In this document: positions 26,782 to 27,655 of the stretch, piece after piece
How positions within the stretch are numbered: the first letter of the stretch is position 1
Layout of the letters: the number at the start of each line of letters is the position of its first letter
Made by a program: the position numbers and the translations under genes
The notes under the pieces: model-generated
The model's input: only the letters and a program-made list of their open reading frames with translations
Databases searched by the model: none
What the model was told of the DNA's origin: nothing
From: Escherichia phage S127 BCL3
Length of the DNA: 64,000 bases
Sequence record: OQ626344
Reading direction: 5' to 3' (one strand)

Positions 26782-27240
26782 TCAACCCTCTTTGTACTCC
26801 ACCACGATAATATCTATATCAAAAGTGGCAAGGTTAATAATGTCCTCTACATGTTCCCACTTCAAACCGCCTATGCCGCACCCGATCTTAGGGATGTAGA
26901 ATGGTAAAATCGACCCCTCAAATACTTCATTGACTCGCTCAAATCCTTTCAGTATTGAGAAATATTCAGCATTAGGTCCTGGATAGAACTGAGTATACAG
27001 ATTTATTCCGTAGACAATACCTCTCGAAGATAAGTGCTCCCAACGGGAGAACGCGCCCAGTTTACTTAGGCAACCGTGCATAGTCATTTTATCAGCTTCC
27101 AATGCTTGAGGGAATTCACGAGCAATCTGCTTTGCTACACCCTTCCCCATTGTGTGGAAGCAGTTACAACCGTGGATCAGGTGACCAGCACCGCTCTTAA
27201 AAAGGGAGATTAAATCTCCCTCTACAGTATCAATAATCAC
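26782..27240 (-). CDS. macrodomain protein, TARG1/OARD1-like (putative ADP-ribosyl hydrolase)
   Basis: GTG start at 27240 overlapping upstream stop, with GAGGAG RBS; motifs HGCNCFHTMGKGVA and PKIGCGIGGLKWEHVE parallel TARG1 as recalled; about 152 aa. Confidence 0.6.
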   Translation of the reverse strand: MIIDTVEGDLISLFKSGAGHLIHGCNCFHTMGKGVAKQIAREFPQALEADKMTMHGCLSKLGAFSRWEHLSSRGIVYGINLYTQFYPGPNAEYFSILKGFERVNEVFEGSILPFYIPKIGCGIGGLKWEHVEDIINLATFDIDIIVVEYKEG

Positions 27241-27655
27241 GATATTCCAGCTCCTCTTCCACAATTTCAAAAAACTCAGTCCAGCACTGTGGCATATTGG
27301 AGTTACCGAAGTGGCTTTCATAGTAAAGGTTTTTACCGCTCGGAAGATAGAAATCCGTTACCTCATAAAATCCACAATCGTCGCACTCACCTTCTTCAAA
27401 CTTGGCCTTAACCTTAATGTCGAGGAAGGTGAAAAGTTTATGGACATCTTCGGTCTCGAACTCCCAACTAATGTTGTTTTCCGCATCGGTGTAAAACTGG
27501 ATCAGTAGGCCATCATCCATTTTTCCAAAATATTCTGTGAAGTAGCTCCCTTCCCAGAAGTCTTTGTGACAAATAATATCCATGCGCTTGCCCATAATAA
27601 AGGTGTGGGCGTTTCGTGCATCGTCACGAATCAGTTTTGGCATTTCATAAATCAT
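27230..27655 (-). CDS. hypothetical protein translationally coupled to macrodomain gene
   Basis: 141-aa ORF; GGAGA RBS; stop overlaps macrodomain GTG start. Confidence 0.65.
   Translation of the reverse strand: MIYEMPKLIRDDARNAHTFIMGKRMDIICHKDFWEGSYFTEYFGKMDDGLLIQFYTDAENNISWEFETEDVHKLFTFLDIKVKAKFEEGECDDCGFYEVTDFYLPSGKNLYYESHFGNSNMPQCWTEFFEIVEEELEYRDY

Follow-up and report, generated by a model that had tools for sequence, protein, structure and literature searches.

The closest experimentally studied homologue of the macrodomain described here is T4 Tk.4, renamed AdfM (anti-DarT factor macrodomain) in a 2025 preprint, where T4 became susceptible to DarTG2 once tk.4 was knocked out and no gene other than tk.4 reached significance in a transposon screen of the whole genome with DarTG2; T5 is DarTG2-sensitive, and the mechanism of T4 AdfM on DNA was inferred there, not measured (10.1101/2025.11.20.689424). 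Biochemical evidence exists for the chimallivirus AdfM, which strips DarT2-installed ADP-ribose from DNA (PMC13309987). In the literature, DarTG2 resistance through the Tk.4/AdfM family is described for T4 only, and we found no such report for the Vequintavirinae. The PhiKZ representative of the chimallivirus proteins (gp104) resembles the protein studied here in being a stand-alone phage macrodomain with an “orphan antitoxin” logic, but it is reported to keep the DarG-type lysine (N23/K78), is imported into the phage nucleus and represents a lineage of its own within the class (PMC13309987). The AdfN proteins, phage NADAR orphan antitoxins against DarTG1, are likewise phage copies of an antitoxin's eraser domain; they differ in their NADAR fold and their specificity for guanine-ADP-ribose (PMC11825919).

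Among cellular proteins, SCO6735 of Streptomyces coelicolor is a hydrolase of thymidine-linked ADP-ribose on DNA that gives protection from DarT; its Q85A and N27S variants are dead or nearly so, it has a longer mobile loop carrying Lys89 and Lys94, and it also acts on protein substrates, via another mechanism (PMC9411070). The macrodomain of DarG2 is known from Thermus aquaticus and Mycobacterium tuberculosis structures (PDB 5M31, 5M3E, 5M3I), and human TARG1/OARD1 (PDB 4J5R, 4J5S) removes mainly Glu/Asp-linked ADP-ribose from protein.

Layout of the locus

The window analysed is a 64,000-nt stretch of DNA from Escherichia phage S127 BCL3 (sequence record OQ626344), a Vequintavirus, that is, an rV5-like phage of E. 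coli. It contains no tRNA genes and no Rfam families. Two overlapping genes, here called the macro gene and the upstream gene, are at issue; their features are as follows.

27655..27230, minus strand: upstream open reading frame, ATG start, 141 aa, TGA stop at 27232..27230
27230..27655, minus strand: the same upstream gene as a family member (phrog_8157), product with pI 4.4, net charge of about -18 and 19% aromatic residues
26782..27240, minus strand: macrodomain gene, GTG start at 27240, stop at 26782, 459 nt, 152 aa
27230..27240, minus strand: start/stop overlap of 11 nt, GTGATTATTGA, read directly from the sequence
27251..27256, minus strand: GAGGAG Shine-Dalgarno-like hexamer, read from the sequence, 10 nt 5' of the macro GTG
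27775..27803, minus strand: sigma-70-like promoter match TTTACA-17-TATAAT (11/12), from a consensus scan only
26757..26785, minus strand: sigma-70-like promoter match TTGACA-17-TATAGT with extended TG, from a consensus scan only
Key residues of the macro protein: N26, Q84 and the phosphate-binding loop G120-G125

The arrangement of two open reading frames, with a GTG start overlapping the upstream stop, was as the original prediction had described it: both lie on the minus strand, the macro GTG falls within the final codons of the upstream gene, and the coding-strand junction reads ...GAAGAGGAGCTGGAATATCGTGATTATTGA, giving the overlap of 11 nt. This overlap is kept in the rV5-like relatives, one variant (L009) having a 4-nt ATGA overlap instead. 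The GAGGAG hexamer lies within the coding sequence of the upstream gene and is the putative ribosome-binding site of the macro gene.

An in-frame ATG at 27321, given as the start in an automatic list of open reading frames, was rejected in favour of GTG 27240 because the 27-residue extension that it would add is absent from all homologues; these 27 residues are an other-frame reading of the 3' end of the upstream gene. The N-terminus from the GTG, MII(D/G)TV.GDL, aligns residue for residue with four homologues (L003, L007, L012 and L013) that have a different upstream gene, a Shine-Dalgarno sequence of their own and an ATG at the codon matching the macro GTG, and the BASEL annotations carry an identical 459-nt coding sequence. 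Judging from these alignments, GTG 27240 is the correct start. As to transcription, the promoter match at 27775..27803 lies about 120 nt 5' of the ATG of the upstream gene and may mark the start of a two-gene early transcript, while the match at 26757..26785 sits at the macro stop codon and may serve the next gene downstream. The six further neighbour genes all belong to phage PHROGs with no assigned function.

Class and active site of the macrodomain

The motifs on which the original prediction had relied are present in the 152-aa product (HGCNCFHTMGKG at aa 23-34 and PKIGCGIGGLKWEHV at aa 117-131). Pfam PF01661 (Macro) matches over model positions 1-118 of 118 with a score of 32 bits (cut-off 22; E 1.3e-7), and the best single-sequence match in the PDB is DarG (5m3i, E 5.6e-7). 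The AF2 model (pLDDT 96.8, pTM 0.91) has a three-layer alpha/beta/alpha macro fold; Foldseek gave 169 PDB matches at E<=0.001, those listed being macrodomains or proteins designed on the macro fold, with TARG1 (E 2.4e-10, TM 0.78/0.85), Poa1p and DarG as the nearest structures. A profile of 68 homologues matched PDB macrodomains at E values of around 1e-18, namely DarG (1.5e-18), BT1257 (2.6e-18), TARG1 (5.5e-18), SCO6735 (6e-18) and Poa1p (1.4e-15), with nsp3-type macrodomains at about 1e-2 in the same search. These nearest neighbours place the protein in the ALC1-like/TARG1 class, not with MacroD, PARG or viral nsp3, and the Foldseek ranking agrees; within the class, the profile scores do not separate the subfamilies represented by these five proteins. 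We are confident in placing the product among the macrodomains of the TARG1/DarG (ALC1-like) class, and to this extent the proposed TARG1/OARD1 type was borne out by HMM, profile and structure searches alike.

Its active site is of another type. N26 and Q84 are invariant in the 68 homologues and align with N22 and K80 of DarG, Q84 aligning also with the glutamine of BT1257; where DarG reads PTKKHW the macro protein reads LYTQFY, with Gln at the Lys position. The correspondence of Q84 to Q85 of SCO6735 was taken from the structure-based alignment in PMC9411070, not from a direct residue alignment. In the profile-PDB alignment K84 of TARG1 falls on Q84 and D125 on G124. TARG1 is the closest solved structure by Foldseek and has loop motifs in common with the macro protein, but the Lys84-Asp125 dyad of TARG1 is missing from it, its place being taken here by Q84/G124, and an identity as TARG1/OARD1 proper was ruled out. 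The assignment to a TARG1/DarG type therefore stands for the class and fails for the active site, in which the catalytic lysine is replaced by the invariant Gln84 in the manner of SCO6735 and BT1257. With these two the macro protein shares the ALC1-like fold and a Gln in place of the Lys together with a supporting Asn (N26/Q84 against N27/Q85 in SCO6735); they differ in being cellular, not phage, proteins and are only about 22-24% identical to it by structural alignment.

DarG2 belongs to the same class and has the conserved Asn, and its biological substrate is the one that we would propose for the macro protein. However, Lys80 of DarG2 is Gln here, and the 152-aa protein does not have the C-terminal DarT-binding domain: the DarG models are matched in their macro part only (positions 3-143 of 338 in the NCBIfam model, where the score is 48 bits and the cut-off 250; positions 4-141 of 329 in the PADLOC model). 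No darT was found beside the macro gene when the upstream gene and the six further neighbours were searched with Pfam, PADLOC and NCBIfam. With the lysine, the C-terminal domain and an adjacent darT all missing, a DarG2 antitoxin was ruled out.

The T-even phages encode a full-length homologue. Over its full length (153 columns) the macro protein is 41% identical to Tk.4 of T2 (E 4e-43), with N-termini matching one to one and the motifs HGCNCFHTMG, NLYTQFxPGPN and PxIGxGIG in common; this T2 gene (CDS0045) corresponds to T4 tk.4 in size (468 nt) and in its position after vs, and the tblastn matches of the macro gene overlie T-even genes named tk.4. Like T4 Tk.4/AdfM, the macro protein is a stand-alone macrodomain of PHROG 335 (E 8.8e-61) with the same length class (152 and 155 aa), N...Q residues and glycine loops, encoded by an early, accessory gene that is dispensable on K-12 and overlaps its upstream neighbour (vs in T4). 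The two differ in their phages (Vequintavirinae here, Straboviridae in the case of T4), in their genomic neighbourhood and in the GTG start of the present gene. These alignments identify the macro protein as the Vequintavirus orthologue of T-even Tk.4/AdfM. The family is large, with 2811 phage records that include the T-even phages, and the finding is not new, since the literature already covers the gene family, its annotation and its likely role. The rV5 copy itself is annotated “tk.4: phosphatase,” and many GenBank relatives are labeled “macro domain protein,” “phosphatase” or “tk.4,” to which the GenBank/PHROG labels of the family add “O-acetyl-ADP-ribose deacetylase.”

Role of the macrodomain

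The reading that we favor, and regard as likely, is that the macro protein is a Tk.4/AdfM orthologue countering host DarTG2, with the upstream gene a separate accessory gene. Reversal of DarT action, which the original prediction had put forward, has genetic support in T4 Tk.4/AdfM and biochemical support in the chimallivirus protein; for the macro protein the DNA substrate and the anti-DarTG2 role would follow by homology to T4 and SCO6735. Expressed from a long early/middle transcription unit, the protein would bind the ADP-ribose put by host DarT2 on thymidines of single-stranded phage DNA and hydrolyse the thymine-ribose bond, which would restore replication and transcription of the phage DNA in E. 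coli that carry DarTG2. There being no catalytic lysine, the chemistry would probably resemble that of SCO6735 rather than that of TARG1 or DarG: Gln84, held by Asn26, would position the distal ribose, and a backbone-bound water would carry out the hydrolysis. At 41% identity, substrate specificity could differ from that of T-even Tk.4.

The Bas54 orthologues of the upstream and the macro gene, assigned by gene size and position as bas54_0091 and bas54_0092, respectively, are non-essential on K-12 (21/23 and 31/31 TA sites hit), and the macro gene also occurs in nature as frameshifted and deleted alleles, so the gene is accessory in character.

We considered it unlikely that the macrodomain is instead a housekeeping or NAD-metabolite enzyme, working with a phage Sir2-family enzyme in an ADP-ribosylation/deacylation cycle rather than in counter-defence. 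Candidate activities on this account are those of an O-acetyl-ADP-ribose deacetylase, of an ADP-ribose-1''-phosphate phosphatase and of a protein de-ADP-ribosylase. Promiscuity in vitro is common among TARG1-class macrodomains. The GenBank/PHROG labels name two such activities, and H23, which is conserved, and T30 align with H23 and S30 of Poa1p (the positions mutated in PDB 6LFS and 6LFT; with a fragment as query, only Poa1p and DarG were matched in the PDB), a pattern that would fit a small-molecule phosphatase or deacetylase activity and is not diagnostic of it. The relatives also encode a Sir2-family gene (Pfam SIR2, E 2.6e-16) whose product could supply O-acetyl-ADP-ribose or ADP-ribosylated targets. 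That gene, however, is some 51 kb away from the macro gene and part of another gene block, and the distributions of the two families are largely different (977 phage records, including T5-like phages, for Sir2; 2811, including T-even phages, for Tk.4), T5 being sensitive to DarTG2. The phenotype of T4 Tk.4 is defense-specific, the gene being otherwise dispensable, and the annotations of NHEP1 (at 1-50 kb and 100-137 kb) and of the central early region of Bas48 (50-100 kb) include no ADP-ribosyltransferase, the Sir2-family gene being all that was found.

Somewhat more doubtful is the possibility that the macrodomain counters another ADP-ribose-based defense, such as RNA- or protein-ADP-ribosylating toxins or ADP-ribose-derived signals, its resemblance to AdfM being one of fold only. 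The score-based subfamily assignment is ambiguous, SCO6735 acts on proteins as well as on DNA, and the macro gene is diverse within one genus, its alleles falling into identity classes of about 79% and at least 90% where the neighbour gene remains above 90%, a diversity that points to an arms race with a variable target. Against this, T4 Tk.4 emerged as the single significant hit against DarTG2, and the N/Q pair is the one required for thymidine-ADP-ribose hydrolysis in SCO6735.

If the favored DarTG2 role holds, rV5-like phages carry a ready-made DarTG2 counter, which would aid host-range prediction on DarTG2-positive E. coli. Phages of this type are common components of therapeutic and biocontrol cocktails. 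In the widespread Tk.4/AdfM clade, which spans about 2800 phage genomes, the active site has a Gln as in SCO6735, not the lysine of DarG and TARG1, and we found no mention of this in the literature examined. It would divide the phage AdfM proteins into two or more mechanistic lineages, one of Gln type (T4, rV5) and one of Lys type (PhiKZ). Beyond the DarTG2 counter in rV5-like phages and the Gln active site, the finding adds little.

The upstream gene

The overlap had been read as the mark of a functional pair, and here gene context, divergence and overlap statistics all speak otherwise. Overlaps are common in the transcription unit (20 of its 76 junctions, or 26%, four of them by 11 nt), and we propose that tight gene packing accounts for this one; T4 tk.4, too, overlaps an unrelated gene, vs. 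The macro and upstream genes are always adjacent in rV5-like phages. Outside these they are not: the upstream homologue follows the macro gene at a distance of about 1.2-1.6 kb in the L012/L013/L016 lineage, the two are in different genome regions in Krischvirus, and in RB49-like phages the upstream homologue adjoins dam. More than 2600 phage genomes have the macro gene and no upstream gene, and a frameshifted macro gene is found together with an intact upstream homologue. Identity between lineages is 70-76% for the macro protein and about 40% for the upstream protein, and the two were therefore not inherited as a unit. The upstream gene is not a dedicated or obligate partner of the macro gene, and a functional operon of the two was rejected; a loose functional link is possible, given the adjacency in rV5-like phages and the distance of within about 1.5 kb in the L012-type lineage.

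The upstream protein has no recognisable motif, as the original prediction had it: Pfam, NCBIfam, PADLOC and the PDB gave no match with either the single sequence or a 9-member profile, and the sole match in PHROGs is its own function-unassigned family. An HMM search of 1.84 billion representative proteins returned only about 10 true relatives; three further matches were dismissed as spurious, being summed repeats in large eukaryotic proteins. All known members of the family come from Vequintavirinae-like and RB49-like coliphages. A similarity to the C-terminal domain of DarG was sought with the DarG models of NCBIfam and PADLOC, and no match was obtained at E<=1.

It is very unlikely, in our estimation, that the acidic protein is a new anti-defense factor, at its most interesting the DarT-binding or DNA-mimicking half of a split, two-gene DarG with a Gln-type macrodomain in rV5-like phages. 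As a candidate for a new anti-defense hit in Bas54 the gene was rejected, the HIDEN-SEQ hits being bas54_0063, bas54_0108 and bas54_0140. Least probable of all is a two-part anti-DarT module in which the macrodomain erases and the acidic protein blocks DarT or mimics DNA: the coupled adjacency of the genes in all rV5-like phages, their proximity in the L012-type lineage, the coupling of the RB49-like homologue to another DNA-modification gene (dam) and a strongly acidic character like that of many phage inhibitor proteins would fit such a module, but the full-length DarG models do not match the upstream protein, and the solitary macro genes, the separation in Krischvirus, the unequal divergence, the intact homologue beside a frameshifted macro gene and the frequency of overlaps all count against it.

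Returning to the favored reading, the upstream gene would be a separate accessory early gene for a small, very acidic protein, an ORFan that is one among many uncharacterised early genes. Speculatively, its product would most probably bind or inhibit some host factor, perhaps through a Cys-x-x-Cys...His metal site; the C-terminal part of the protein is a conserved module, GECDxCGxYxVxDxxLPSGxxxYxExHFGNxNxPxxWxEFFExVE.

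The macrodomain protein and its active site

The window comes from a Vequintavirus, an rV5-like E. coli myophage. The 3 kb around the gene pair shares 99.0% identity with phage B9-1, and 119 phage records match this region at 80% identity or more. The two genes, as read from the sequence, are:

27655..27230, minus strand: upstream gene, 141 aa
27240 to 26782, minus strand: macro gene, 152 aa, GTG start

The end of the upstream gene and the start of the macro gene have 11 nt in common (GTGATTATTGA), and a GAGGAG hexamer lies 10 nt 5' of the GTG. We kept this GTG and rejected the ATG at 27321, the pick of a mechanical ORF list, because residue 1 of T2 Tk.4 aligns with residue 1 of the macro protein, because homologues in four relatives (L003, L007, L012 and L013), which have a different gene 5' and their own SD, carry an ATG at exactly the position of the window's GTG codon, and because BASEL annotations give the identical 459-nt CDS. 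The BASEL records hold the complete CDS labelled as hypothetical; the GenBank macro domain protein of B9-1 (L001 6783-7151; OQ420740, B9_00143) starts at an internal Met and has 122 aa, a call that drops the HGCN motif of the active site together with the N-terminal strand.

The product is a macrodomain beyond reasonable doubt, as originally predicted. It matches Pfam Macro (32 bits; cut-off 22), PHROG 335 (E 8.8e-61) and the macro part only of the DarG models in NCBIfam and PADLOC, and the single sequence finds its top PDB match in 5M3I, the macrodomain of M. tuberculosis DarG. The AF2 model from 68 homologues reaches pLDDT 96.8, and its closest solved structures are TARG1 (TM 0.78/0.85), Poa1p, DarG, BT1257 and SCO6735. 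The family profile scores near-equally against these five subfamilies (E 1.5e-18 to 1.4e-15), so the ALC1-like/TARG1 class is clear and the subfamily is left unsettled by scores.

Unlike profile scores, the active-site residues do settle the subfamily. All 68 homologues have N26 and Q84; in the alignment, the Q84 column holds K84 of TARG1, K80 of DarG and a Gln of BT1257, and the G124 column holds D125 of TARG1. SCO6735, which hydrolyses thymidine-linked ADP-ribose on DNA, has Gln85 at the lysine position in a structure-based alignment; its Q85A mutant is dead, and the activity of N27S is almost abolished (PMC9411070). On these data, the window protein is TARG1-like in fold and SCO6735-like in its catalytic residues. 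The proposed TARG1/DarG type thus held for the fold and failed for the catalytic type, where Gln84 and G124 replace K84 and D125 of TARG1.

A counter-defence family and its dispensability

Members of the macro family were found by tblastn in 2811 phage records. The T-even member is tk.4, between vs and tk, and the rV5 record names the macro gene “tk.4: phosphatase”; the macro protein and T2 Tk.4 are 41% identical over their full length (E 4e-43), with every signature motif in common. When a T4 transposon library was screened on a DarTG2 host, the sole significant hit was tk.4, a clean knockout made T4 sensitive to DarTG2, and the gene was renamed adfM (10.1101/2025.11.20.689424, November 2025 preprint). 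A chimallivirus macrodomain, also called AdfM (PhiKZ gp104), strips DarT2-installed ADP-ribose from DNA (PMC13309987; Cell Reports, 2026). Through the T4 tk.4 and PhiKZ gp104 results, the DarT-type reversal that had been guessed as the function has since become the field's finding for this family. The macro gene is an orthologue of this now-characterised counter-defence family, beside an unrelated ORFan, and by homology the role predicted for its product is likely right. The sole point that is mildly new is that the T4/rV5 AdfM clade, including the window protein, is Gln-type, like SCO6735, whereas PhiKZ AdfM (N23/K78) and DarG (K80) are Lys-type.

Judged from the residues alone, Poa1p-type small-molecule activities would also be conceivable. 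A phage-encoded cycle with a Sir2-family product is likewise conceivable, as close relatives encode such a protein (Pfam SIR2, E 2.6e-16; L020 17141-17821, PQ511146, beyond the window), but its gene lies ~51 kb from the macro gene and the Sir2 family, with homologues in 977 phage records, T5-like phages among them, differs from Tk.4 in phage distribution. The annotations of phage NHEP1 at 1-50 kb and 100-137 kb, and those of the corresponding central early region in Bas48, list no ADP-ribosyltransferase.

The gene with this likely anti-DarT role can be lost. The Bas54 counterparts, assigned by size, order and the 11-nt overlap, that is, by position and length, are bas54_0091 (426 nt; upstream gene) and bas54_0092 (459 nt; macro gene) in the HIDEN-SEQ supplement, and neither is essential on E. 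coli K-12: 21 of 23 and all 31 TA sites are disrupted, respectively. In P0005 (a 135.5-kb contig) a deletion joins residues 1-55 of the upstream protein to the macro protein's C-terminal part; the junction is a “QFY” microhomology present in both. The macro gene is frameshifted in two samples (L016, 2501-2961; L017), and residues 73-127 are deleted internally in two others (L018/L019, 2501-2779). These alleles, taken from public assemblies and in some cases possibly assembly errors, fit a gene that is dispensable and on which selection fluctuates.

The upstream protein and the question of a pair

The description of the partner as having no recognisable motif was borne out: single-sequence and profile queries found zero matches in Pfam, NCBIfam, PADLOC and the PDB, and the protein falls in phrog_8157, a PHROG without assigned function. 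Among 1.84 billion representative proteins searched exhaustively with an HMM, ~10 are real relatives, each a short phage protein; three further hits, to large eukaryotic repeat proteins, were rejected as artefacts. Common to the family is a conserved C-terminal module, invariant at G89, C91, D92, C94, G95, Y97, V99, D101, P105, G107, Y111, E113, H115, F116, G117, N120, P122, W125, E127 and F128. The protein is strongly acidic (pI 4.4; D+E 31, K+R 13) and 19% aromatic. Structure prediction, successful for the macro protein, gave a poor model here (pLDDT 59, 4 sequences), and fold searches returned nothing significant. Our best guess, a speculative one, is a binder or inhibitor of a host protein, perhaps with a small metal site.

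The overlap of the two genes had been taken as meaningful, and the evidence says that they are not a functional pair. Overlaps are routine, occurring at 20 of the 76 junctions in the same-strand unit of the Bas48 annotation (four of them 11 nt), and T4 tk.4 overlaps the unrelated vs by 4 nt. The upstream-gene homologue of RB49-like Krischvirus (39% identity) adjoins dam, and the macro gene there (70% identity) is found in the vs-tk region. A third lineage (IMG/VR contigs L012 and L013; contig L016) has a macro gene with its own SD and, 1.2-1.6 kb downstream of it, the upstream-gene homologue (40% identity), so gene order is reversed; the macro gene is intact in L012/L013 (~76% identity) and frameshifted in L016, where the upstream-gene homologue is intact 1.6 kb off. 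The unequal divergence of the two proteins between lineages shows that their histories are separate. Furthermore, the macro gene occurs without the upstream gene in ~2600 phage genomes. What remains for a pairing is that the two are always adjacent in rV5-like phages.

In RB49 the end of the upstream-gene homologue, ORF064c, overlaps the start of dam by 1 nt (L002 3001-4244). The ORFan is directly 5' of a DNA-modification or de-modification gene in two phage lineages.

Surroundings and other genes in the window

A promoter-like site at 27803-27775, a consensus match only, is possibly common to both genes. On the coding (minus) strand of 26300-28300, 9 sigma-70-like matches were found against 3.5 expected, which suggests many small early transcription units, and one of them, at 26331-26304 (minus), is a perfect TTGACA-16-TATAAT. 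Two genes 3' of the macro gene, 26336-26530 (minus) encodes a 64-aa protein matching Pfam Phage_zn_bind_2 (E 7.8e-23). Two genes 5' of the pair there is a presence/absence polymorphism: at ~28432 to 28494 many relatives hold a ~640-bp insertion (compare L005 36-659 and L006 81-659), annotated as homing endonuclease or endonuclease VII, which the window lacks. Sixteen records titled “Campylobacter phage” (MG0656xx, host C. jejuni) match 26000-29000, the upstream protein being 90-94% identical in the seven listed; probably their host is mislabelled, or they are coliphages isolated alongside.

A 408-aa protein (28494-29720, minus; phrog_4477, a PHROG without assigned function) has no match in Pfam or the PDB, a Q/G-rich linker and the end ...AFDDDIPF, which is also the C-terminal tip motif of E. 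coli SSB. We propose it as a candidate ssDNA-binding protein of the phage, one that would use host SSB partners. Its Bas54 counterpart by position, bas54_0087, is “Essential” (8 of 57 TA sites hit; HIDEN-SEQ).

A gene-poor stretch of ~1.2 kb (~23730-24960), empty in Rfam and tRNA searches, contains degenerate direct repeats:

24465-24645: repeat units of 65-74 nt
24138-24380: repeat units of ~130-136 nt

The small ORF 24062..24346 (minus), bas54_0101 by position, is “Essential” (0 of 11 TA sites hit; HIDEN-SEQ); either a small protein or a DNA/RNA element could be what is essential here.
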